Shown here piece after piece: positions 2,296 through 28,460 of a stretch of DNA of 34,445 nt. This DNA is from a virus (Duplodnaviria > Caudoviricetes). Numbering within the stretch: the stretch's first letter is position 1; each line of letters opens with the position of its first letter. A program made the translations under genes and the position numbers. The stretch spans positions 1-34,445 of the IMG/VR virus record IMGVR_UViG_3300042196_000194; one strand, given 5' to 3'. The notes below the pieces were generated by a model that saw only the letters and a program-made list of their open reading frames with translations, had not been told where the DNA came from and did not search any database.

Positions 2296-2530
2296 CCGAC
2301 GGACAGGTCCGAGAGGTGCAGAAGACGGTAGTCGGGGTCGAAGGGGGCGGCTAGACCAGCCGCGGGCGGCGAGGCGGCGGTAGACGGGGTCCAGGTGTGT
2401 CCAGGTTCACGAGAGGGGGTGGAGTAGAGGGTAGAGCCGGTCGGAGCGTCTCGCGGGCCGGGGGATGTTAAAACGTCTGTGGACTCGTTGGGACGCGCCG
2501 GGAACCGAAGAGGGGAGTGAGTCACGACGG

Positions 2531-3031
2531 ATACTCCTAGGGGCGTGGCGACTGGACGTAGTGTATACCGGCGGGGGTTAGCGGTAAACTGAGACTTGTG
2601 GAAAATGAACTTTACTATATGCGTATACGAGACGTGTATCTCGTGAATTGAAAGTCCTCGCACGCTCGATAAGAGCATTCTGAGTGTTATCATAATAATG
2701 CATTGTATATCAACACGGTACTCCTAGGGTACTCCTAGGGTACTCCTCGTTTACAAAGTGTAAAGTACCGGTAACCAATTGTTGCGATTAGAGATACTCC
2801 CAGAGGTACTCCCGGTACTCCCACATTTTACTTTTGAAAAAATATTTTTGTGTCTCGCGTGCGCGCAATTATGCGCGCGTACGCGCGAGAGGATAATCTT
2901 TTAATCTGAGAGGCGTAAGAACTTCTGGCAATCTCTGGGCACGCTTTAATAATTTAAGGATCTGTCACAGTTAGGAACGCGCTCTATGTGAGGTACTCCC
3001 ACTAGGAATTTTCCCATTTTCATGGGAGTAC
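2531..3031. repeat. iteron-like RTACTCC repeat cluster in AT-rich non-coding DNA (possible origin or terminus/packaging site)
   Basis: RTACTCC at 2531, 2718, 2729, 2740, 2794, 2806, 2815, 2993 and inverted at 3025; 11-bp tandem GGTACTCCTAG at 2717-2747. Confidence 0.7.
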
Positions 3032-3518
3032 CTTTCACACAATTTTCAACCATTAGTACATAAAACTCACTAGTTTATACAACTTAAAGTAGAGTGAGAC
3101 TTCAACCTATGATTGCTGATCTGTTAAACTTTATCAACCTTGGGTTGTAAATGTATGTAGGTGTGATCTTCTATCCTCGGGCTATTTATCGTCGAATTTC
3201 TCAGTTATCTAACCTGTGTCTTGGTGAGCTCAGTTTCTCTAAGACACGTCTTGGCGCGCTCAGTCCTCCAACTAAGTCTCGATCTAGAGACTCAAATTTC
3301 CGACGGAGTGGACAGCATTTGAGGGTAAAAGGATGAAATCTAAGGTCTTAAAATCGCCTACGGCTGCAATTTTTAAGTTTATTAAAAATACTTAGGCATT
3401 TTATCGTCAACTTGGTGATGAGTTATAGCTGACTCGTCTCAATACTTTGAAGAACCATGTGTGTCCCTCCCAACTGAGGCCGCACGCCTCCTTCCCCGAG
3501 CCACGCACCACCCCGCCC

Positions 3519-3600
3519 GTGTCGTGTGTCGTGTGTCGTGTGTCACGGGCCGCCCTGCGTGTGTCGTGTGTCACGGGCCGCGCACATCGAGTGTCGTGTG
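3519..3600. repeat. GTGTCGT heptamer tandem repeats
   Basis: (GTGTCGT)3-GTGTCACGGGCCG from 3519, partly repeated at 3559-3580; related tracts at 4345-4397 and 4971-5098. Confidence 0.8.
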
Positions 3601-3640
3601 GATTCACTAGGATTTCAACTACTTAGCCCGGTGGGCTGGG

Positions 3641-3680
3641 AAAAATGTGGGGAGGCACCTCTACGTGAGACGCCTCCCCA
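3641..3680 (-). terminator. intrinsic terminator of leftward unit
   Basis: 9-bp stem TGGGGAGGC/GCCTCCCCA followed by a T-run on the minus strand. Confidence 0.65.
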
Positions 3681-3773
3681 GTTCGTGGTGATCGGTAGGT
3701 TCAGGCCCGTGCCGGCGGGTGTCGGCGAGCTAGGGGGTAACTCTTTACGGGCCTGAACCTAAGACGCCCTTAC

Positions 3774-4157
3774 CTAGGCGACCTTCTGGTCTTCGGGCTT
3801 GGTCTCCGCCGTGGAGGCGGTGCCCGAGAGCTCTTCGAACAGGTGACGCAGGCTCTTGGAGACGCCGATCTTGCGCTCCTCGGCCTTTTCGAACAAGATC
3901 TGTGCGCTGAGGCTCTTGGGCTTGCGGCCCGCGCCTCGGGCGCGATCGACGGCGAACACCTTGCGGACCGTGTACTCTCCCGGCCTCACCTCGACCTCGG
4001 AGCCGTCGGCCGCGTGGGCTGTGCCGCCCTTCGCGGTGAGCTGGCGTCCGTCCTGCCAGGCCGACTTGTAGTCTTCGGCGTCGAGCTGGAAGTTGATGAC
4101 CGGTTCACCCTCGCCCGTCTGCGGACGTCGGTCGGCCTGAATGTCATACTTGGACAC
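3774..4157 (-). CDS. hypothetical early protein (paralog of 5643..6035)
   Basis: GTG start after AGGAG RBS (alternative ATG at 4181); colinear similarity to the 5643..6035 product. Confidence 0.8.
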   Translation of the reverse strand: MSKYDIQADRRPQTGEGEPVINFQLDAEDYKSAWQDGRQLTAKGGTAHAADGSEVEVRPGEYTVRKVFAVDRARGAGRKPKSLSAQILFEKAEERKIGVSKSLRHLFEELSGTASTAETKPEDQKVA

Positions 4158-4243
4158 TGTCTGAGTTCTCCTCTCTGTCATGGCGGAGTCCTCCGGGACC
4201 CCGTACCGCACGGCAAATCTCCAGTTGCCGCTCCATATATCTA

Positions 4244-4858: not shown

Positions 4859-4884
4859 CGTGGGTTTCTCCGTCTCTATTGTCT

Positions 4885-4913
4885 ATTATACTCGAGAATT
4901 TACAACTTGTAAA
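4885..4913 (-). promoter_or_regulatory. sigma70-like promoter with overlapping palindromic operator
   Basis: minus strand TTTACA-17 nt-TATAAT; palindrome TTTACA-N3-TGTAAA 4899-4913. Confidence 0.85.
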
Positions 4914-5130
4914 ACTCAAACTTCACCTCGGTACAACACTTCAGGACGAAAGAACTAGCGCGTACTAAGCCACGGGCCGTGTGCTGTGTGCTACACACAG
5001 TGTGTCGTGTGCTGCACATTTTGAGTCAGGTGTAACACTTCAGGTGTACTGCAGTTCGCGTGGAAGGCCGTGTGCCGTGTGCCGTGTGCCACACACATAT
5101 GTTGGGTGTTTGATCGGGGATGTAGCTGAG

Positions 5131-5642: not shown

Positions 5643-6035
5643 TTAGGCCGCGGCCTCGTCGGCCGGGACTTCTTCGGTCGTGTCACCCTCGGCCTCACTG
5701 GCCTCGGATAAGACGCCGCCCAGGGTCGCGTAGACCTCCAGGATCGCCTTCTTGACGGTGATCCCCTGGGTCTCGCAGGCCTCGAACAGTTGCTCGGCCG
5801 TGATAACCTTGGCCTTCTGCTTCTGCTCGCTCTCGTGCAGGAAGACGGAGCGAACCGTAAACACGCCGGCTGGCATGTCCACGTCGTCTCCGCAGCTCGT
5901 CACGACTCCGCCGACTCGGCAGAGACGACGGGCCTCGATCCAGGCCTGCTTGTATCCGACCTCGCGGATGTCGAAGTTGAAGCCTAGCTCGGCGCCGTCG
6001 CGCCGTGATGCGTTGATCGCGTATAGCTTGTTCAT
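5643..6035 (-). CDS. hypothetical early protein (paralog of 3774..4157)
   Basis: ATG at 6035 has a GGAG RBS (ORF track start 6047); acidic tail; similarity to 3774..4157. Confidence 0.8.
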   Translation of the reverse strand: MNKLYAINASRRDGAELGFNFDIREVGYKQAWIEARRLCRVGGVVTSCGDDVDMPAGVFTVRSVFLHESEQKQKAKVITAEQLFEACETQGITVKKAILEVYATLGGVLSEASEAEGDTTEEVPADEAAA

Positions 6036-6139
6036 CTTGAACTCCATCGTTTTTTTATGTGACAGGGGCTTGTTAGGGCGGAAGTGGCGATTGCCTGGTC
6101 CGTAGCCCCTTCTGGACGGAGTATCCGTCCATTGTGATC

Positions 6140-6168
6140 ATTCTATCAGAGAATTTACAAGTTGTAAA
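6140..6168 (-). promoter_or_regulatory. sigma70-like promoter with overlapping palindromic operator
   Basis: minus strand TTTACA-17 nt-TAGAAT; palindrome 6154-6168. Confidence 0.8.
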
Positions 6169-6624: not shown

Positions 6625-6684
6625 GTTACAAGTTGTAAACATATAAAAATTGCGTTTTACAAAATGTAAATAATAGAGTAATAT
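6625..6684 (+). promoter_or_regulatory. rightward promoter upstream of the array, with two operator copies
   Basis: TTTACA(6656)-17 nt-TAATAT(6679); palindromes at 6625-6639 and 6656-6670. Confidence 0.75.
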
Positions 6685-6865
6685 ATCTGATGGCTAATCC
6701 AGTTACTCTGCTCACTCCTTGTGGCTAGTTAGCCTAGAGACGAGGACTCTAACTCGTCTTCGTCTTGAACTCCAAGCTAAACAACTTAGGGGACCCCGGC
6801 CCATCCTCCTCAACTCAACATCGGGTGCCGTCGGAGTCCCCTCTCTTTTGGCAGCCGTCGGTACA

Positions 6866-7883
6866 GAGAGATCATGATGCTAGAGCGAGCTATAGGTTAT
6901 GAGAGTTCACTTAATTGGAGCGAGCTACCGATGGCCGAGTGTTCACGGTACGAGAGCGAGTCATATCGTTGGAGTGTCCACAAAGTGTGAAGCGAGCTAC
7001 CGTCCAGGAGAGTCCACCTCACACGAGCGAGTCGTACTACTCGAGAGATCATCATGCGAGAGCGAGTCAACGAGAAGTGAGAGTTCACTGAAGGGAGCGA
7101 GTCACACCTTAAGAGAGTTCCTATCCCAAGAGCGAGTCTCAGACGACGAAGTGTCCCTGAAACAGGAGCGAGTTGTCGGCCGTTGAGAGTTCGAGAGAGA
7201 CGAGTAAGTTATACCGCTAGAGAGCTCTTGATCGGAGAGCGAGCTAAGTTACAGGAGAGATCATAGCAACAGAGCGAGTCCGAGAGTTCGGAGAGACCAA
7301 TGAACAGAGCGAGTCCCCTAGGTAGAGAGATCACAGTACGTGAGCGAGTCAGAAACTCTGAGGGCACAGTCTTAAGGAGCGAGTCAACCTATCTGAGAGA
7401 TCATAGTGTGAGATCGAGTCACATAGCTCGAGAGATCATAGCAACAGAGCGAGCCCGCGCGTGCGAGAGAGTTCATTGACTACGAGCGAGAGATATAGTT
7501 TACGAGAGTCCAGATCACAGGATCGAGCGAGCTACTCGGAGAGTTCACTGTAACGGAGCGAGCTACGAACCTTGAGAGTTCATTTCGCGAGAGCGAGCTA
7601 TCGTGTCGAAGAGATCGTAGGTATGGAGCGAGTCATTACGTCGAAGAGATCATAAGTGGGGAGCGAGCGCGATGCTGTTGAGAGTTCAAGGAGGAACGAG
7701 CGAGCCGTCGGCTTAGAGAGTTCAAAGAATACGAGCGAGCCGTAGGATCTGAGAGTTCAAATTATGCGAGCGAGTCTGGATAAGAGAGAGTTCGAAGACA
7801 AGAAGCGAGCCAGTGAGGATTGAGAGTTCATAACGGATGAGCGAGTCACAAGATAAGAGAGTTCATGCCCTTGGAGCGAGCTA
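6866..7883 (+). ncRNA. TIGR-like dual-repeat/dual-spacer array (~29 units of 35-37 nt), putative guide RNA array
   Basis: repeat 1 GAGCGAG(TCA/CTA) at 6883, 6918, 6954 ... 7839, 7874 alternating with repeat 2 GAGAG(T/A)TCA, separated by ~8-nt variable spacers; promoter upstream. Confidence 0.8.
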
Positions 7884-7884
7884 G

Positions 7885-8092
7885 GTGAGCTACATAGCTG
7901 ACAGACTGCGAAGAGAGTGCGGAGCTGCTGAGCGCGCTTGAGAAGATCGCGGCAGGCGAAGGAGCATACGGCGCGCAAGCTTACGAGTACAAGCAAGTTG
8001 CCCGCAAAGCTATCGCGGCGGCGGCGGCGAGACGAGGAGGTCACGGCTCGATCTCCCTCGCCGCCGCCGCCTGCTCGCCTGCGCGGCCCTAG
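7885..8092 (+). pseudogene. small phage protein, apparently frameshifted near 7918
   Basis: GTG 7885 MSYIADRLRRE.. ends early; AELLSALEKIAAGEGAYGAQAYEYKQVARKAIA.. continues in another frame with no standard start. Confidence 0.4.
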
Positions 8093-8167
8093 TTCTGCTC
8101 GCCGCCTACGTAGTGGCGCTCTTTTCGTGCTCGGCGTGACGTCGTCGGCACCTACAGGAGGAACCAA

Positions 8168-9519: not shown

Positions 9520-9698
9520 CCCGCGGCCTGCCGCCCGAGGGTAGGAGGATGTCGTGCAAGATCTGCTGGGAGTGTCGGGAGATGCTGGACAGGCTAGGCC
9601 TGCCGTCGGGCAGCCGCATCTACGGCGGACCCTACCTCGGCTATCGGCTGCCCGACGGCAGCACGGAGGTACTGGAGAAGAAGGATGGGCAGAGATAG
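9516..9698 (+). CDS. small CxxCxxC protein
   Basis: coupled GTG start (or ATG 9549 after AGGAGG); SCKICWECRE. Confidence 0.55.
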   Translation: MTRGLPPEGRRMSCKICWECREMLDRLGLPSGSRIYGGPYLGYRLPDGSTEVLEKKDGQR

Positions 9699-10098
9699 TG
9701 AGGTGACGACCCTGGCGACCAAGAAAGACTTTCAAGTTACTTGGTTCTCGGGCACGGGCGCGGGCGGACAGCACCGCAACAAGCATCAAAACTGTTGCCG
9801 CATCACACACCTGCCCACCGGCATGACCGAGACGGAGCAGTCGCACCGGGAGAGGTCACACAACCAGAGAGACGCGTTCAGAAGGTTAGCCCGACGCGTC
9901 GTCGGCCACTACGTGAGGTCGAGGCAGCGTGAGCGGCACCGCAGCTTAGAGCGAGTCAGGACGTACGACGAGCCCGACAACCGCGTAGTTGACCACGCCA
10001 GCGGGCTGCAGTTGTCGTACTCAGAGATAGTTGGAGAACAGAACTTGGCGCCGATGATAGACGCTCGCTTGAAGGCGAGCATAGCAGATGACGGGTAA
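9685..10098 (+). CDS. class I release factor-like peptidyl-tRNA hydrolase domain protein (GGQ)
   Basis: SGTGAGGQHRNK..RITHLPTG..RERSHNQRDA..RVRTY..PDNRVVDH; only 137 aa, lacks the codon-recognition domain. Confidence 0.85.
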   Translation: MGRDSEVTTLATKKDFQVTWFSGTGAGGQHRNKHQNCCRITHLPTGMTETEQSHRERSHNQRDAFRRLARRVVGHYVRSRQRERHRSLERVRTYDEPDNRVVDHASGLQLSYSEIVGEQNLAPMIDARLKASIADDG

Positions 10099-10801: not shown

Positions 10802-11305
10802 TTGCCTCTGATAGGTGGTCCCGGCGGAATGCCCCCGGGAATGATGGGCCCTCCGGGCGGGATGCCTCCCCCGGGAATGATGCCTCCCCCGGGAATGATG
10901 CCTCCCCCGGGAATGATGCCTCCGGGACCCGGAATGCCTCCTCCGCCGCCCGGCGGTCCGCCGCCCGGCATGGCTGGTCCTCCAGGAATGCCTCCCGGCG
11001 GACCCCCACCTACGAGTCTGCCTCCCGAGGTCCTCGCCGGACTGCTGGGCCCCGGCGGTCCCCAGCCCGGGGCCACTCCTGCGGGACCCGAGGACGGTCC
11101 TCCCGAGGCTAGGTTGTCGAAGGAGGAGGGCATGGCCCTGTCGGTCGTGCTCCAGGACCCGATGGCGCGCAAGGAGCTCGCGCGCGAGGCCCTAAAGATC
11201 CTCGGAGTGGAGCGCGGCATGCCGGGCGACGCTGGTCTCGGCGGCCCGCTCGGCCCCGGAGGACAGTCAGGTCTCGGACTGGCGGACGGCCCGCCCGACT
11301 TCTAG
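10802..11305 (+). CDS. Pro/Gly/Met-rich low-complexity protein
   Basis: AGGAGG RBS, TTG start, MMPPPG repeats. Confidence 0.7.
   Translation: MPLIGGPGGMPPGMMGPPGGMPPPGMMPPPGMMPPPGMMPPGPGMPPPPPGGPPPGMAGPPGMPPGGPPPTSLPPEVLAGLLGPGGPQPGATPAGPEDGPPEARLSKEEGMALSVVLQDPMARKELAREALKILGVERGMPGDAGLGGPLGPGGQSGLGLADGPPDF
10861..10923 (+). repeat. 18-bp coding tandem repeat (3.5 copies)
   Basis: GATGCCTCCCCCGGGAAT at 10861, 10879, 10897, partial at 10915. Confidence 0.9.
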
Positions 11306-11381: not shown

Positions 11382-13058
11382 ATGCCCCCCTATCCCAGGA
11401 ATAGCTTAGTGAGCCCGCGGCCCGGAGCCCTCGCGCCGCAGACCAGCTCGCTAGTGCCTCCGATCCCTCAGCCGACGGTGCCCGACCTAGCCCTGGGCCA
11501 CTACGACCCAGTCGAGTCCTTGAGAAACACGGGTCGAGGCATCGGCGAGTTCGCCCTGGGGCTGCTGCCGGGCTCCGGCGACGTCATGGCAGTTCAAGAC
11601 AGCGTCAGGGCTGGAGGTCAGATGGAAGAAGCCGCGCGGCGAGGAGACTACGGCCAGGCCGCGCTCAAGGGGGTCGAGTCTTTGGTGTCTGGCGCCGGAG
11701 CCCTACCCGTGGTGGGCGGGGTCACTCGCGGGGTGAGCAAGTTGACGACGAAGACCTTAGGTCGTCTTCGGCCCTGGCTCGCTAAGACCGTAGACAAGAG
11801 ACTAGTAGAGGACTTACTACGTCGCCCTGATGTTTCTCAAGTCGAGAGAAACTTACTCACGGAAGCCTTAGACGAGTACTCTGATAAAAGGATAGATGTT
11901 GCGAGGTTCACGTCGAGTGTGCAGCGTAAGCTTTTACCCCTGCAAGTTTTGGAAGTTAATCCGAGACCACCGGGAGTTGGTCCTCCCCTGCAAGACTACA
12001 TGAGGAGTGGTAGAAGTAGTGTTCACCCTGGTGATATACCCGCAAACGACTCTCAGTCTATCGTCGGAGAACACGCGAGGGTCTACTGGGGTGAGTCAGT
12101 TCCAGACGTAGGCTCACACTTTACCGTTCCAAACACATACGCGCATACGCGATCGTATGACTTAATGGACGGCACTCGTAAGGTACTAGAGGTTCAAAGT
12201 GATCTCATACAGCACGAGTTAGATACCGCCGTACTGTATGACCCATACTACTCGAGCAACCTCACAAGAGATCAAGTAAGAGAGTTTTTCGATTTCAGAC
12301 GTGATCACAAGAAAACTTGGTGGAAGAGGATAGTTCGCGAGGAGACAAGGCTCGCCGCCGGCGAGGGAAAGTCCGCCGTTGAGTTTCCCACCGGTGAAAC
12401 CGCGGCTAAGATACAGACCTGGGTAGCTGATGAAAATTACTTTGACTTAAGCTCTTTTAGTGTAAGAGTCGACGAAACTTTAGACACGTATTCAAACGAT
12501 TATCGAGATATCGTTAGAGATCCGTCCGAGTGGAAGAGCTACCTTTACGAGATTCTTCCTAAACAAAACCCGCTCTTCAGACGATCAGATGTGTCCTTAA
12601 AGTCGATAGCCGATGCGAGCGTGTCATACGGTCCTGGGGGATCTGATGAGAATGTACTACAGTATCTCTTAGCGGAGTATGGACCTTATGTTATCGGCCG
12701 TCATCCCGAGGTTAAGACACTGTCGGCGCTAGGAACCATGTCTAAGAAAGAGTTTTTGGAGTTTGTGGAAGAAAATCCACTTTCACCCGACGAGTTTGTG
12801 AAGAGTTTAAGATACATTGAACACAACTTTTATAGGGTCAATGACCTAGTTGAAACGACGAAAGTTCCAGATAAGTACAAGGGTCTCTATGATCTCTATG
12901 ACAAGGACATTCGCAACTTTGTGAAGAAGACCTACGGCGCCAGAGAGATCACCGATCCTTACGGTAACTCTTGGATGCACATAGACCTCGCGCCGGAGGA
13001 GAAGAACCGCCTCATAGACGTGTTTTCACAGCGGGAGACGGGCAATAGCACCGCCTAA
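11382..13058 (+). CDS. 'EVQSD' domain protein A, possible virion/ejected effector (paralog of 16572..18542)
   Basis: 558 aa; HF..YAHTR..LEVQSD..WWKRIVREE..FPTG..YDK blocks shared with 16572..18542. Confidence 0.75.
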   Translation: MPPYPRNSLVSPRPGALAPQTSSLVPPIPQPTVPDLALGHYDPVESLRNTGRGIGEFALGLLPGSGDVMAVQDSVRAGGQMEEAARRGDYGQAALKGVESLVSGAGALPVVGGVTRGVSKLTTKTLGRLRPWLAKTVDKRLVEDLLRRPDVSQVERNLLTEALDEYSDKRIDVARFTSSVQRKLLPLQVLEVNPRPPGVGPPLQDYMRSGRSSVHPGDIPANDSQSIVGEHARVYWGESVPDVGSHFTVPNTYAHTRSYDLMDGTRKVLEVQSDLIQHELDTAVLYDPYYSSNLTRDQVREFFDFRRDHKKTWWKRIVREETRLAAGEGKSAVEFPTGETAAKIQTWVADENYFDLSSFSVRVDETLDTYSNDYRDIVRDPSEWKSYLYEILPKQNPLFRRSDVSLKSIADASVSYGPGGSDENVLQYLLAEYGPYVIGRHPEVKTLSALGTMSKKEFLEFVEENPLSPDEFVKSLRYIEHNFYRVNDLVETTKVPDKYKGLYDLYDKDIRNFVKKTYGAREITDPYGNSWMHIDLAPEEKNRLIDVFSQRETGNSTA

Positions 13059-16571: not shown

Positions 16572-18542
16572 ATGGGCATGTTTGACAACTTAACGAAGCA
16601 GTCCTTAGCTTCTCCTGCGCTCCGAAACTTGCGCGAGGGGGTGCCTGAGTACGGCTCTGGTGAGGCGTGGTCTGGACCGCCGCCGAGTCCCCGTGAGAGT
16701 CTCGGAATCCTAGGCAACGTTGGAAATACAGGAATAGGTGTCGGTGACATCTTTCCGCCTACGGCCGTGCCTCTCGCGCTCTCTGACGTACGTGACATGC
16801 AGGAGCGCGAGAAGGTTGGGCTCGACGTGTCTGGAGTCGAAAAGGCCTTGACATACAGCGCCGTTCCGCTCTCTGCCGTCGGTGTAGGCTCCCTGGCGAG
16901 CAAGGCTGGGAAGATTGGCTCGCGCTACACCACTAAGACCCTGGAGCGACTGTTCGGTCGTGACACCGTTAAGAAGAAGTTCATCACAGACCTACTGAAC
17001 AGGGCCGACGTTACACAGGCCGAGAAGAATTTAGTTAGGCAGAGTCTCGACGAGTACGAGATGACTCGACTTAGAGAGACTCCCGAGGGTGGCCTAGTGC
17101 CGCCAAACAAGATTAACGTCAAGGACTTCACGGAGTTGGTGCAGGACAACGCGCTGCCACTTCAAGTTAACGACGTTCAACGTTACGCTACACAGGGACT
17201 CAGTCGAATCGGCGTGAGCTCCGGTGAAGTTTTGCCGGGAACGAGGGTCTACACGTCTCCAGTAAACACCATGTCCAGTCACCACTTTAAGACGGCGGAC
17301 GAGCCAGGACCTCGAGGTTACTTCGCTCACTCGCGATACTTCGACACCACTAACACTGACATATCTGGGAAGTTACTAGACCCTAACTCGAGAGACACGG
17401 CAAAAAGTATCCTCTCACGCCTGTTCACGGCTCCAGATGATATGTCTCTGATGGCCTACGAGACGAAGTATGGACACGGTTACTCCATGGGTCTCGGTCC
17501 TTATGACTGGGATGTAATATATGCCGTTACCCCAGGAAACATTCACAGCACGATCTGGAACATGGTCGACTCTGAGTCCTCATCTATGAAAAATGTAAAG
17601 GACCTCTTGTTGCCTTACATTAGGAGAGCCGCAGACACACGATACGTGAGAAACGTAGTAGAGGTGCAGAGCGACTTTTTTCAAAAGCCCGAGAAGGTAC
17701 TGAAGGCTGCCTCTCCTGAGCACTCTCTAGCTAACCAGAGTGACGTCGCCGACATGATCTCGAGGAATGATCCCGTGGTGATGAACTTACTGGAGAAGAC
17801 GGGGTACGACGTAACTTTAATGAGGGAGACAGCCGATCTTCCCGACAGTCACATGAACATGGCCTTTGAGTTGATGCAGGATCCTCGCTTTGTGAACAAG
17901 TTTAAGGAGCTTCAGTCACAGACCGTGGGCTATCAGAAGAACTGGTGGCGTCGTGTGGTTCGCGAGGAGATCAATCGAGCTGCCATCGACGGGGTAGACA
18001 CGGTGCGCTTTCCGACGGGCTCTACGGCGAGCATAGTAGCGAGGTGGAGCAACGCCTTGCAGAGCCCAGAGGACTTCATGAACGGCATGAAGTACTACTT
18101 TAAGCTTCACCCGAGTGCGGCTACGGTGGGTGACGTAAAGGCAGATCTTCTCGCAGGATCTATGGAGTTAAAGTACTCTAAGATGGTGTGGAACGAGGCC
18201 TCTAAGTTAAAGGACTCTGATCCTGTAGACAAGCTTATGTCCACTGCACTCGATCAGATCGACAAGAACAACGCCGAGCTCGTGAGAGGTCCTATGCGAG
18301 GGAGTGCAGATTTTTCTGGACTCTTTGATAGGTACGACAAGAACATTGCCGGACTGTTGAAGAAGGAGTACGGCGCGAAGTCTGTGAGAGATGACAAGGG
18401 TTACTCGTGGATAGAGCTCAACATAGCACCTGAGCATGAGAAAGATTTAAGTCTGTTTAACGTCGCTCCGCCCATAGTGGGCGCGGGAATAGTAGCGGAA
18501 GGAGTCGAAGGTGACTCGGAAACTGGACTTCCTAATCGCTGA
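16572..18542 (+). CDS. 'EVQSD' domain protein B (paralog of 11382..13058)
   Basis: 656 aa; HHF..YFAHSR..VEVQSD..WWRRVVREE..FPTG..YDK. Confidence 0.75.
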   Translation: MGMFDNLTKQSLASPALRNLREGVPEYGSGEAWSGPPPSPRESLGILGNVGNTGIGVGDIFPPTAVPLALSDVRDMQEREKVGLDVSGVEKALTYSAVPLSAVGVGSLASKAGKIGSRYTTKTLERLFGRDTVKKKFITDLLNRADVTQAEKNLVRQSLDEYEMTRLRETPEGGLVPPNKINVKDFTELVQDNALPLQVNDVQRYATQGLSRIGVSSGEVLPGTRVYTSPVNTMSSHHFKTADEPGPRGYFAHSRYFDTTNTDISGKLLDPNSRDTAKSILSRLFTAPDDMSLMAYETKYGHGYSMGLGPYDWDVIYAVTPGNIHSTIWNMVDSESSSMKNVKDLLLPYIRRAADTRYVRNVVEVQSDFFQKPEKVLKAASPEHSLANQSDVADMISRNDPVVMNLLEKTGYDVTLMRETADLPDSHMNMAFELMQDPRFVNKFKELQSQTVGYQKNWWRRVVREEINRAAIDGVDTVRFPTGSTASIVARWSNALQSPEDFMNGMKYYFKLHPSAATVGDVKADLLAGSMELKYSKMVWNEASKLKDSDPVDKLMSTALDQIDKNNAELVRGPMRGSADFSGLFDRYDKNIAGLLKKEYGAKSVRDDKGYSWIELNIAPEHEKDLSLFNVAPPIVGAGIVAEGVEGDSETGLPNR

Positions 18543-23893: not shown

Positions 23894-23960
23894 ATGTCGA
23901 TAATCCTTAGAGACGGTGTTACAATCAGTAATTCACAAGTTACGATGGGTGAAGATAACT

Positions 23961-25313
23961 ATGACACTGGAAGATCTCATTAAGAAGGGCAATAAGCTTC
24001 ACAAGGGAGGAAAACTAGACGAGGCAGAAAAGATTTACAACGGCATCCTCAACAGACACCCAGACAACCCAGGAGTTCTCTTCTTATTGGGAACTCTCTA
24101 TCTCCAAAAGCGCTGCAACGGACTCGCCATCAACTTACTTGAGTCAGCCCTGTCTCGACAAGAGTTTTCAGAAGCCTTTAACAACTTAGGAAGCGCGTAT
24201 AAGGCTGAGAACTTTAACGACATGGCGCTCAGAGCCTTTCACCGTGCCCGCGAGCTCAATGAAAAAGATCCAGATGTCTGCAACAATCTCTCCACCATCT
24301 ACATAAACGAGGGGCAGCCAGCCCAGTGTATCGACTGGGCCGACGAGGCTATTAAGCTCGACTCTGATCACCCCAATGCACACTGGAACAGGGGTCTAGC
24401 GTACTTAGAGCTAGGAGAGTGGGAGAGGGGCTGGGAGGGCTACGAGTGGGGGTTTAAGTCCAAGGATCGTCTATCTCGAGACTATAAGACAGACACAAAT
24501 AACGCGACTCGTTGGGACGGTAGTCCGGGGAAGACAGTCGTAGTGTACGGAGAACAAGGAGTTGGAGACGAGATAATGTTCTCGTCGTGCATTCCAGACT
24601 TAATTTCTGTCTCGAAGAAGGTGATCTTTGACTGTCACCCGAGGATGGTTGCCCTCATGCGGAGATCCTTCAACGTCGAGTGCTACGGCACTAGAAAAGA
24701 GTCCAGCATTGACTGGATTAAATTTCCCATCGACAACTTCGTGGCGATTGGCTCTCTCCCGGGGTTCTTTAGAAAGAAGAGTGAGGACTTTCCCGGCACG
24801 CCGTATCTGTTAGCGGACTCCGTGCGCGTAGAGCACTTTCGCGAGAAGATTAGCGCAGTAAAGCCGGGACTTCGCGTGGGCGTCACCTGGACAGGAGGTC
24901 GGAAGAAGACGAGGATTGACCTAAGGAGCATTCCTATCGAGCAGTTAGAGCGGCTATTCAACATTCCTGGAACATCTTTTGTAAGTCTGCAGTACACGCC
25001 GGAGGCCGCAGCGGAGGCCGAAAAGTTTGACCTTCCTCACTGGCAAGATGTGATCAACGACCTCGACGAGTTGACGGCGCTCACAAAGGCGTGCGACTTA
25101 GTCATCTCAGTCTGTCAGACTCAAGTGCACATGGCGGGGGCCCTGGGAGTTTCTTGTCTGTGTCTTACTCCGAGCAGACCGGCATGGAGATACGGCATGT
25201 TTGGAAACATGCCTTGGTACGGTAGCGTGACAAACATTCGTCAAGAGAGCGACGGGGACTGGGCAGGAGTTATAGAGGCGGCGGCAGCTAGACTGTTGGA
25301 ACTTACGAAGTAA
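23961..25313 (+). CDS. TPR-repeat protein with C-terminal GT-B (GT9-like) glycosyltransferase domain
   Basis: TPR motifs (AFNNLGSAY, AHWNRGLAYL), EQGVGDEIMF, RVGVTW, FVSLQY, CDLVISV..HMAGALG, WRY..PWY. Confidence 0.85.
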   Translation: MTLEDLIKKGNKLHKGGKLDEAEKIYNGILNRHPDNPGVLFLLGTLYLQKRCNGLAINLLESALSRQEFSEAFNNLGSAYKAENFNDMALRAFHRARELNEKDPDVCNNLSTIYINEGQPAQCIDWADEAIKLDSDHPNAHWNRGLAYLELGEWERGWEGYEWGFKSKDRLSRDYKTDTNNATRWDGSPGKTVVVYGEQGVGDEIMFSSCIPDLISVSKKVIFDCHPRMVALMRRSFNVECYGTRKESSIDWIKFPIDNFVAIGSLPGFFRKKSEDFPGTPYLLADSVRVEHFREKISAVKPGLRVGVTWTGGRKKTRIDLRSIPIEQLERLFNIPGTSFVSLQYTPEAAAEAEKFDLPHWQDVINDLDELTALTKACDLVISVCQTQVHMAGALGVSCLCLTPSRPAWRYGMFGNMPWYGSVTNIRQESDGDWAGVIEAAAARLLELTK

Positions 25314-25352
25314 GATAAGAGCATACGACTATAGCGGTGATGGAGAAACGCA

Positions 25353-26339
25353 ATGACACGAGTACTAGTCACAGGAGGTGCGGGATTCATTGGGCACCAC
25401 CTAATCGAATGTCTTCTTAAGAACACAGACTGGGATATAGTAGTTTGGGACAAACTCAACTACTCAGGCCGCTTAGACAGACTTCGTGATGTTTCAGCAT
25501 TTAACGAGAGTAGGGTGCTTATACTAACCTGTGACTTCGCCAGTAAGATGAGCGAGGGTATCGTTAGAGAGACAGGCGACGTAAACTATATAATCCACCT
25601 AGGCGCAGAGAGTCACGTTGACCGTTCGATCTCAGACCCAGAGCCGTTTGTCGTGTCTAACGTACTTGGCACTATGAACGTTCTAAACTATGCCCGTGAC
25701 AACTTATCTAACTTAAAGTGTTTTTACTTTTTCTCTACCGACGAGGTATTTGGCCCCGCTCCAGACGGCGTGAACTACTGTGAAGGAGATCCTCACAACC
25801 CGTCTAACCCCTATGCCGCCACCAAGTCAGGCGCAGAGATGCTCGTCAAGTCGTACAGAAACACGTATAAGTTGCCGGCAGTCATAACGAGAACTATGAA
25901 CGTCTTTGGCGAGAGGCAACACGCTGAAAAATACATTCCAACTGTGATTAAAAAGGTACTTCGGGGTGAGAAGGTGACCATTCACGCTGACTCTACTAAG
26001 ACACGGGCGGGCAGCAGATACTATATTCACGCTAGGAACGTGTCTGACGGGCTCCTATTTCTAGTGAGTAAAAACTCTGTGGGAGAAGACTATCACATCG
26101 TCGGTGAAAAGGAGGTAGATAACCTCTCCCTGGCGCGTTTGATAGCAGATATCTTAGGCAAGTCCTTAGACTTTGAGCTTGTGGACTTCCACAGTTCACG
26201 CCCAGGCCATGATCTTCGCTACGCTCTCAGCGGTGAAAAGCTTAGAGAGTTCGGCTGGGTGCCCCCAAAGAACTTTGAGGAGAGTCTCGAAAAGACGGTG
26301 TACTGGACCCTCGAAAATTCACGTTGGTTGGAGATGTAG
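25353..26339 (+). CDS. rfbB: NDP-sugar 4,6-dehydratase (dTDP-glucose 4,6-dehydratase-like SDR)
   Basis: GGAGFIG, AESHVDRSI, STDEVFG, PSNPYAATK (YxxxK), RPGHDLRY. Confidence 0.88.
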   Translation: MTRVLVTGGAGFIGHHLIECLLKNTDWDIVVWDKLNYSGRLDRLRDVSAFNESRVLILTCDFASKMSEGIVRETGDVNYIIHLGAESHVDRSISDPEPFVVSNVLGTMNVLNYARDNLSNLKCFYFFSTDEVFGPAPDGVNYCEGDPHNPSNPYAATKSGAEMLVKSYRNTYKLPAVITRTMNVFGERQHAEKYIPTVIKKVLRGEKVTIHADSTKTRAGSRYYIHARNVSDGLLFLVSKNSVGEDYHIVGEKEVDNLSLARLIADILGKSLDFELVDFHSSRPGHDLRYALSGEKLREFGWVPPKNFEESLEKTVYWTLENSRWLEM

Positions 26340-26341
26340 CT

Positions 26342-27211
26342 GTGAAGATTAGTTACGTCTGTCACACCGGACTGAGCGTGGCTTCCACTAGGTATAGGAT
26401 TGTCATTCCCGCAAACGGTCTGAACAAGTTAGGACATCACGTTACCGTAGGTCCTCCCGACTTAGATGCTGATGTTGTCGTGTTTAGTAAGCACTTTTCC
26501 CAAGACGATCCTGACCTCGCTAGGAGAGCAAGGGGACGAGTGGCGTTTGACATCTGCGATGATCACTTCGACACTAAGTTTCGAGATCACTACACAACGA
26601 TGATTGACCTAGCTAGTACGATTACGTGTTCTACGGAGACCTTGAGAAGTAGAATTGCAGAGCGCACGGGACGTGAGGCAAACGTCATACCAGATCCGTA
26701 TGAATTTCCAGAGCAAGAGCCAAGTTTTTCTCCGGGGAACGTTCCTCGTCTGCTCTGGTTTGGACACGTCATTAACGTCGGCACGCTACGGCCTCTGATG
26801 CCGAGGTTAGAGCACTGCAAACTGACAATCATCACTAACGGTGACCTCTCTGCTCCTCGCGCTGGAGTGGAGGTTGTTAAGTGGAGTCCTCAGTCTATGC
26901 TAGTAGGCTTTAGACACTGCGACATGGTGATCATACCTAGTAATCTAGAGGAACATCGGACGCGAGTTAAGAGTACGAACAGAATTGTCGAGTCAATAAG
27001 ACAGGGAAAGTTTGTAAGTGCTAGTAAGCTGCCCTCATATGAACAGTTTTCTCCTTGGATGCACATCGGAGACGTGATCGAGGGTGTAGAGTGGGCACTG
27101 AGTAATCCTAGTGAAATTGTCGGTAGAGTCAAAGACGCACAGGGCTACGTTAAGACTAAGTTTTCTCCGAAAATAATCGCAAACCTCTGGGAGGAGGCCC
27201 TGTCGGCGTGA
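26342..27211 (+). CDS. putative GT-B glycosyltransferase
   Basis: ASTRYR, FDICDDHF, LLWFG, KSTNRIVESI. Confidence 0.7.
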   Translation: MKISYVCHTGLSVASTRYRIVIPANGLNKLGHHVTVGPPDLDADVVVFSKHFSQDDPDLARRARGRVAFDICDDHFDTKFRDHYTTMIDLASTITCSTETLRSRIAERTGREANVIPDPYEFPEQEPSFSPGNVPRLLWFGHVINVGTLRPLMPRLEHCKLTIITNGDLSAPRAGVEVVKWSPQSMLVGFRHCDMVIIPSNLEEHRTRVKSTNRIVESIRQGKFVSASKLPSYEQFSPWMHIGDVIEGVEWALSNPSEIVGRVKDAQGYVKTKFSPKIIANLWEEALSA

Positions 27212-27714
27212 AGTTGAACATTGGGTGCGGAGATAAGTATCTAGATGGCTACGTAAACGTAGACGTCGTAGAGAGTCGTAGGGGTGTTAGGCCAGACATA
27301 ATCTGCGACGTAACAACTTTAGATAAGTTTGATGATAGCACAGCAGACGAGATACTGGCAGTACACCTAGTAGAGCACTTTTACCGCTGGGAAATAGATG
27401 ACATCCTCAGGAGCTGGGTGCGGGTACTCAAGCCAGGAGGGACAGTGATAGTCGAGTGCCCTAACTTGTCTAAGGCAGTCTATAACTTCATAGTAGACCC
27501 CGAAAACGAGAGCATGTCCATGTGGGCATTTTACGGTGATCCGCGCTGGAAGGACCCACTAATGTGTCACAAGTGGGCGTATACACCACAAACTTTGGCT
27601 CAACTGTTAGCTGATGTAGGACTGGTGAACATTAGGCGAGAACCCGCTCAGTTCAAGAAGCGTGAGCTTAGGGACATGAGAATCCTCGGTGATAGGCGAG
27701 GAGAGAGTAGTTGA
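27208..27714 (+). CDS. class I SAM-dependent methyltransferase
   Basis: KLNIGCG..GYVNVD, HLVEH, RVLKPGG..ECPN. Confidence 0.88.
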   Translation: MKLNIGCGDKYLDGYVNVDVVESRRGVRPDIICDVTTLDKFDDSTADEILAVHLVEHFYRWEIDDILRSWVRVLKPGGTVIVECPNLSKAVYNFIVDPENESMSMWAFYGDPRWKDPLMCHKWAYTPQTLAQLLADVGLVNIRREPAQFKKRELRDMRILGDRRGESS

Positions 27715-28460
27715 GCGATCTTAGGCACATCTTTATCGGCTGGGACGCCAGAGAGCAAGAAGCATACGAGGTGTGTAAGAGCTCAATTCTTAGACACTCT
27801 AGTGTTCCTGTAGAAATAATCCCGATAAAGGAGTCACTCCTGCGTCGAGTTGGGCTATACGACAGACACTGGTACATAAACGGAGATGGTCAGTGGGTAG
27901 ACTCTATTGATCTAAGACCGTTTAGCACTGAATTTTCGTTCACGAGGTTCTTTACACCCCTGTTGGCGTCGTTAATAGGAACACACAGGTGGGTACTATT
28001 CTGTGACTGTGACTTTGTCTTTCAGTCAGATGTAGCTGAGTTATTTAGAGTTGCCAGTGATCGCTATGCTGTAATGTGCACTAAGCATCAGCACGTTCCT
28101 CTAGAGAAGCGAAAGATGGATGACCGTGCTCAGACTAAGTATCGTAGGAAAAACTGGTCCAGTTGTGTTCTCTGGAATAGATTTCATCCTGAGAACAGAG
28201 CTCTTACAACTGAGGGCATAAACAGAGAGCCTGGACTCTGGCTTCACACGTTTTCCTGGCTTCAAGACTCGCTCATAGGCGACATTCCGCTCGACTGGAA
28301 CTTTCTCGTCGGCTACAGCCACTATGATAAGACGAGGCCTCCAAAGGCTCTGCACTACACTCTAGGTACTCCCAACATGCCTGGGTTAGAAAACACGGTG
28401 TTTTCTAACGTTTGGTGGAACGAACTAGCTCGACTTCGAGGGGATAACACCGGTTCTTAA
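27711..28460 (+). CDS. GT-A (GT8-like) glycosyltransferase
   Basis: IFIGWD.RE, STEFSFTRF, FCDCD (DxD), RKNWSS, WNFLVG, HYTLGTP. Confidence 0.85.
   Translation: MSDLRHIFIGWDAREQEAYEVCKSSILRHSSVPVEIIPIKESLLRRVGLYDRHWYINGDGQWVDSIDLRPFSTEFSFTRFFTPLLASLIGTHRWVLFCDCDFVFQSDVAELFRVASDRYAVMCTKHQHVPLEKRKMDDRAQTKYRRKNWSSCVLWNRFHPENRALTTEGINREPGLWLHTFSWLQDSLIGDIPLDWNFLVGYSHYDKTRPPKALHYTLGTPNMPGLENTVFSNVWWNELARLRGDNTGS

Follow-up and report, generated by a model that had tools for sequence, protein, structure and literature searches.

The window analyzed here, i.e., an entire linear virus record of 34,445 bases with an estimated completeness of 78%, encodes a phage gene set comprising a terminase, a P22-like portal protein, a major capsid protein, and a head–tail adaptor. 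Judging from the families of the portal and adaptor proteins, the source is probably a tailed, podovirus-like phage. The region is present in three public runs labelled sediment metagenome (X1, X2, and X3), in which the phage reached read depths of approximately 7–15, 4–9, and 0–4.5, respectively. Close relatives of the phage were not detected, the top capsid identity among 43 loci being 60%. Likewise, GenBank phages showed no DNA match, and no longer contig was found on record for the four window proteins searched.

The left part of the window encodes a BCS1-like AAA ATPase (1033–2295), of which a homolog lies approximately 4 kb from the TIGR-Tas locus in contig L047. It is followed by a long, mostly non-coding stretch (2300–3760) in which an AT-rich core is accompanied by GGTACTCC(T/C) repeats and tandem copies of GTGTCGT; this region is origin-like or genome-end-like. 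Two small paralogous proteins without a known family (32% identity, E 9e-15) are encoded on the minus strand at 3774–4211 and 5643–6047, and an Atlas search with the latter gave no usable match. Farther to the right, a 137-aa protein featuring an RF-1 peptide-release domain, possibly a ribosome-rescue factor (9685–10098), and an ORF rich in Pro, Gly, and Met with an 18-nt coding repeat (10802–11305) were found. Two large paralogues without a Pfam or PHROGs family (11382–13058 and 16572–18542; E 5e-15) lie on either side of the terminase gene. Within the virion module, genes for a TPR protein, a nucleotide-sugar epimerase, a glycosyltransferase-like protein, and a methyltransferase (23916–28460) suggest glycosylation of the capsid or tail.

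Between positions 6853 and 7883 of the plus strand, the window carries an array of 29 units, in which a 10-nt edge repeat, spacer A of approximately 8 nt, a 9-nt loop repeat, and spacer B of approximately 8 nt follow each other. The strict alternation of two repeats, reported in a preliminary description of this DNA, holds for 29 edge positions (6883–7874) and 29 loop positions (6866–7857). The start of the array, placed there at 6866, had to be moved to 6853, since the array opens with a 5′-truncated edge consisting of the 3′ half (AGCCG; 6853–6857) and a first spacer. Related arrays open alike, and the guide tigRNA5 of SpTasH begins with AGCCA. From this half-edge opening, it follows that the 10-nt repeat represents the edge and that the plus strand is the coding strand. 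Reading the array on the minus strand, with repeats starting with TG, was ruled out by the promoter, the half-edge start, the orientation of the Tas genes, and the SpTasH guide. If the cut site corresponds to the SpTasH tigRNA ends, the first predicted 35-nt guide (half-edge, spacer A, loop, spacer B, half-edge) would extend from 6853 to 6887. According to the available descriptions, dual-repeat TIGR arrays typically close with a 3′-truncated edge followed by a terminator; in the window, the last edge repeat (7874–7883) is complete, and a terminator-like site, not above chance expectation, is located approximately 220 nt beyond it.

In total, 21 units are 35 nt long, five are 36 nt, and three are 37 nt, in agreement with the period reported previously. 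The non-coding nature of the repeats is likewise borne out, each of the six reading frames containing between 9 and 21 stop codons. Spacers are mostly 8 nt long and mostly unique, as had been noted, with one 8-nt spacer B seen twice. The consensus sequences proposed at that time are more restrictive than the repeats themselves: GAGCGAG(TCA/CTA) indeed marks 29 edge positions, but is exact in only 13 of them (the first 7 nt in 24), and GAGAG(T/A)TCA is exact in 16 of the 29 loops. The combined edge-plus-loop pattern matched 25 times in the 1,050-nt array and twice in the remainder of the window (both strands), whereas 500 dinucleotide shuffles gave 0.69 matches on average and never more than 4. 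Since contigs of the two runs X1 and X2, one of them possibly being the origin of the window, span the array in largely unchanged form, it does not represent an assembly artefact.

Both repeats contain box C- and box D-like motifs with internal pairing and an extra pair in the edge, the box positions being mapped by inference from the SpTIGR array of a Salicola phage. The edge pair C4–G7 is present in all 29 copies and the 3–8 pair in 26, while the 3–7 pair of the loop is present in 28 of 29 copies and its C8 is invariant. In the edge, box C takes the relaxed form YYA, with CCA occurring once, TCA eight times, and CTA seven times among the 29 edges. T occupies the middle base of this box in 9 of 29 edges of the window, compared to 6 of 1,002 in the related arrays, and the edge box C of the window sets the array apart from all classes compared.

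Such C-to-T changes could reflect relaxed selection in a decaying relic, i.e., an array left to drift after the loss of its tas gene. In line with this, the mean mismatch of the edges to their own consensus (1.39) is above that of 49 of 52 related array sets. Moreover, all 11 strain substitutions listed for a 4-kb stretch, which derive from only two contigs with depths of 2.4–2.8 and may include errors, fall within the array, five of them in spacers and six in repeats. However, change is confined to edge positions 8–10, whereas C4–G7 and the loop C8 are intact in all 29 units. The eight TCA and seven CTA edges are accompanied by different spacers, as if the array had expanded once the change had occurred, and TCA edges dominate several Tas-adjacent arrays, SpTIGR itself featuring TCA and TTA edges. 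Decay of the array is therefore considered improbable. Separately, a minor strain in X1 carries, at low depth, seven clustered substitutions between 7747 and 7804, three of them in one spacer and one being a TC-to-CT swap in an edge; this pattern resembles gene conversion between units.

The array looks like a separate non-coding transcription unit, and its transcript likely starts at its own promoter, as deduced from the flanking sequence. A sigma70-like promoter directed toward the array (TTTACA-17-TAATAT; 6656–6684, plus strand) was recognized by consensus match only. It is followed by a non-coding leader (6690–6852) with three predicted hairpins; the fold of 6690–6860 reaches −60.3 kcal/mol (z −4.6), and 0 of 200 shuffles folded as well. 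The trailer contains a long GC-rich hairpin (8015–8071; trailer z −2.0, a weak value) and a terminator-like hairpin followed by a T run (8100–8128), the latter being one site compared to a shuffle mean of 2.0 and, hence, not significant alone. Rfam searches of the window resulted in no match. The array promoter region has a 54-nt block in common with the promoter region at 4884–4937, and a divergent promoter of the same type is predicted to drive the leftward small genes (6140–6168, minus strand). Furthermore, the 13-bp palindrome TTACAANTTGTAA occurs twice upstream of the array (6626–6638 and 6657–6669), with one copy lying over the −35 box. The window contains five copies (2751, 4900, 6155, 6626, and 6657) versus a chance mean of 0.01, and these overlap the −35 boxes of leftward promoters and of the array promoter. 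The palindrome is a candidate operator of a phage regulator, and its presence in both kinds of promoter indicates that guide expression is likely co-regulated with the leftward genes.

Dual-repeat TIGR arrays are described, in the accessible part of the literature, as two alternating repeats of 8–12 nt with short variable spacers between them, and the window exhibits 10-nt and 9-nt repeats with spacers of approximately 8 nt. The array is almost certainly of the TIGR type, as the preliminary description had proposed, because its repeats match the published SpTasH guide and arrays of the same type flank Tas genes. The SpTasH tigRNA5 has the order AGCCA-8 nt-10-nt loop-8 nt-AAGCG (Faure et al. 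2025, PMC12045711, Table S3), and processing of the SpTasH guide was demonstrated experimentally. Similar to the window, SpTIGR of Salicola phage CGphi29 (TIGR-TasH, NC_020844) features a 10-nt edge, (A/G)AGCGAG(C/T)CA, which is reported to be cut in the middle, 8+8 spacers, and a half-edge opening; parsing of the Salicola phage array yielded 36-nt units with CCA, TCA, and TTA edges. The 8+8 spacers had been regarded as a variant feature, which does not hold, as SpTIGR already has 16 variable nucleotides. Instead, the variant lies in the 9-nt loop (GAGAGWTCA) and the 35-nt unit of the window, whereas the SpTIGR loop is 10 nt long (AAGACAACCA) and its units measure 36 nt. The window also differs by its 29 units, by the lack of an adjacent tas gene, and by closest relatives using TasA rather than an HNH nuclease. 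TaTIGR-TasR and FpTIGR-TasA (Faure et al. 2025) share the order edge/spacer A/loop/spacer B, and their edge and loop ends are related; as far as published details were accessible, they differ by 18 variable nucleotides in 36-nt units, and TaTIGR repeats start with UG and end with CCA, compared to the equivalent box AG and the end YYA in the window (under the inferred mapping).

CRISPR arrays resemble the array in their regular repeats, unique spacers, and leader–array–terminator layout, but have one repeat of 25–36 nt instead of two alternating repeats of 9–10 nt with 8-nt spacers. A CRISPR array was rejected, given this deviating repeat plan, the lack of an Rfam family match, and the lack of a cas family among the 42 ORFs scanned.

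To place the array among its relatives, metagenome contigs were scanned for the repeat pattern, resulting in 38 loci, 32 of which had parsed arrays; two GA microsatellites (L049 and L067) and duplicate loci were excluded from the counts. One same-strand ORF family adjoins the array in 23 of the 32 array-bearing loci (three pairs being duplicates). A member of this family matches TaTasR (PDB 9MTY, E 4e-9) and TasH (E 7.5e-8), and no other solved sequence. In 10 members, PF02371 was present and HNH and RuvC Pfam families were absent, characterizing them as TasA-like. One Tas protein encoded between two arrays (L059:849–2006, minus strand) features a long Cys-containing N-terminal extension and possibly represents a nuclease-fused form. 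Distant homologs of the TasA query also occur in GenBank, in 79 records of Mycobacterium phages and in one Microcystis phage, and many viral TasA loci (among L086–L165) showed no array of this repeat type, other repeats being possible there.

The 35-nt period was also found in 14 other loci. In 11 of them, the locus includes a match to Tas, of the nuclease-free TasA kind, and the closest array lies no more than 33 nt away; the remaining three are contigs of 1.0–1.7 kb. In a quick tree of 63 Tas sequences, which excluded four short rows as well as loci whose array had not been parsed, six of the nine proteins associated with 35-nt arrays formed one clade (support 95), two fell into another, and one stood apart. 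The six-member clade retains a Tyr and a His at a distance of seven residues, like the processing residues of SpTasH (Y289/H296), and the loops of its arrays match those of the window. The corresponding TIGR-TasA loci (L051, L054, L060, L070, L078, and L085) thus resemble the window in period and loops (GAGAGATCA and GAGAGTTCA), and differ from it in having edges with CCA in 128 of 134 units and a tas gene immediately next to the arrays. Spacers in common between the window and related arrays showed no excess over chance. The available text of the Xu preprint gives the length of dual-repeat guides as uniformly 36 nt, from which the window deviates with 35 nt in 21 of its 29 units. Considering the 11 Tas-adjacent loci with a 35-nt period, 36 nt describes the published cases and not the definition of the family. 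No paper on a 35-nt tigRNA was found in the open literature as far as accessible (figures S4–S5 of PMC12045711 lay outside the search), and none on an orphan TIGR array. Among viral contigs, three scans for the window-type pattern recovered 0, 2, and 2 stretches, one of the last two being a chance coding match, and three pattern matches in prokaryote genomes turned out not to be arrays.

The window is not a complete TIGR-Tas locus: a tas gene is absent from the 34.4-kb contig, both within the 6.85 kb upstream and the 26.5 kb downstream of the array. A profile of 63 Tas sequences achieved a best E-value of 0.058 in the contig, compared to 1e-34 on the distant SpTasH as positive control, and searches of the contig with PF02371 and custom Tas profiles were empty. 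The genome search with the Pfam Nop family (PF01798) was also empty, which is uninformative, because the ten Tas proteins scanned match PF02371 and not PF01798.

It might be supposed that another effector encoded in the window has come to use the array, since several ORFs without a family lie near it. Every related array with a recognizable neighbour has Tas, however, and the flanking ORFs encode only 68–152 aa, whereas Tas proteins measure approximately 265 aa or more. In Atlas searches, two of the family-less ORFs also yielded nothing Nop-like. We regard a takeover of this kind as very improbable.

To evaluate how often arrays and tas genes are separated, an array-first census of viral contigs was carried out, covering at least 160 loci of an estimated 350 or so stretches and addressing the 36-nt rather than the 35-nt class. 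It comprised 69 records, with one locus per record of at least 25 kb plus five shorter records. Tas was encoded in 59 of the 69 records and in 29 of the 29 that were at least 90% complete, five of these near-complete records having come in through their Tas. Array units at a linear distance of at least 6.85 kb from tas were present in 10 of the 59 Tas-bearing records, with arrays of three or more units in seven; among these were 20-unit arrays at 18 kb and at 50 kb from tas. Since detached arrays are ordinary in the census, the lack of tas in a record of 78% completeness says little in favour of a true orphan, and the tas gene of this phage probably lies in the missing 22% or so of its genome.

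The opposite view would be that the phage has no tas and keeps its 29-guide array as a true orphan under its own regulatory circuit. The guides would then be supplied to the Tas of a co-infecting phage, a prophage, or a host element, as redirection or decoy, hijacking or jamming the TasA of co-infecting elements, and the relaxed box C would be read by a divergent Tas. The absence of tas from the contig would fit this scenario, as would the own promoter, leader, and terminator-like site of the array, its edge boxes off the family norm, and the presence of several Tas-like contigs in the same runs. Furthermore, Tas is missing from all 39 records examined of phages that resemble this one in the capsid or a neighbouring gene (four of them being at least 90% complete). 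The window capsid protein was likewise found in none of 47 array or Tas records, 46 of which had been fetched for Tas or had Tas on the locus. Against this stand the census results, with Tas in every near-complete array record and distant arrays being common there, and the missing portion of the genome. A true orphan, whether in its general form or with the complete hijacking scenario, appears unlikely to us, albeit less so than decay of the array.

Comparison of the three runs with the tas gene of L070 revealed a Tas-like contig, including approximately 300 extra bases, at a depth of 8.05 in X1 and 5.7 in X2, and none in X3. Compared to that of the phage, this depth pattern is compatible with a cognate gene. 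The contig matched in two short stretches only, is unlinked to the phage, and is one of several such contigs in the runs; a search for it among viral contigs and the best 120 protein matches did not recover it.

Possible targets were sought by joining paired spacers, as the preliminary description had recommended. Within 4.5 Mb of phage and metagenome DNA, neither the window nor Tas-linked arrays showed an excess over shuffled pairs. No self-targets of the window guides were found at zero to one mismatch in 24 combinations of phasing, geometry, and gap. With spacer A joined to the reverse complement of spacer B, self-targets were also lacking for 603 guides of 45 records, indicating that their absence is normal for the family. 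An apparent excess of cross-targets in a smaller comparison with five shuffles (39 versus 24–30 and 36 versus 17–26) disappeared in a larger test comprising 1,657 guides, 4.5 Mb, and 40 shuffles, where z was at most 2.0 in any geometry. The 13 window guides included there had no match in the A-plus-reverse-complement-B geometry. One guide of L164 matches another Tas phage (L126) exactly, with a GC gap, which is within chance in the larger test. Natural targets are not named in the accessible TIGR literature either.

The lack of targets could be read as favouring a DNA-level array without an RNA product, such as iterons or protein-binding or packaging sites. The null result does not speak for a DNA-binding-site array, because Tas-linked arrays behave alike in the same test. 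Moreover, the repeats match an experimentally processed guide, the exact half-edge opening is what would be expected from processing, the spacers are unique, and a separate origin-like repeat region exists at approximately 2500–3050. Of all readings considered, this one is the least probable.

On balance, we favour, with some confidence, a detached array that is transcribed from a phage promoter and whose edges are cut in the middle, yielding 35-nt guides; the responsible TasA would be encoded in the missing part of the genome and would bind non-self DNA without cleavage. The transcript would extend from approximately 6690 to approximately 8128, and the Tyr/His dyad of Tas would cleave each edge to release guides with two spacers. 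Spacer A and spacer B may then pair with opposite strands of a 16-bp site, corresponding to A plus the reverse complement of B. The nuclease-free TasA would bind such sites without cutting and thereby block transcription of non-self DNA, be it that of the host, a competitor phage, or a plasmid. Cleavage-free binding is proposed by analogy, as other nuclease-free Tas proteins act in this way; in the published work accessible, repression was demonstrated for stem-loop TasA and dead TasR, and not for the 35-nt clade.

The array represents a variant of a system known since its description in 2025, and its analysis reveals no new mechanism and no natural target. It differs from what is known by its 9-nt loop and 35-nt guides, by the relaxed edge box C, and by standing alone as a unit for which a separate promoter, a folded leader, and a terminator are predicted. 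A class of 35-nt guides with a shortened loop exists beside TasA proteins, compared to the uniform 36 nt of the literature as far as available (PMC12045711; PMC13421893; bioRxiv 10.64898/2026.09.09.750476; bioRxiv 10.64898/2026.08.11.744272). The published finder, as described in the accessible text, seeds on a 4-nt gap between the boxes, which the loop of the window lacks under the box mapping used here. Searches by Faure et al. 2025 (PMC12045711) are described as starting from tas genes and covering 5 kb on each side. Since such tas-first searches miss detached arrays, the guide repertoires per phage have probably been undercounted. Being long, featuring strain variants, and having a defined promoter, the array furthermore provides material for determining how spacers change and what they target.
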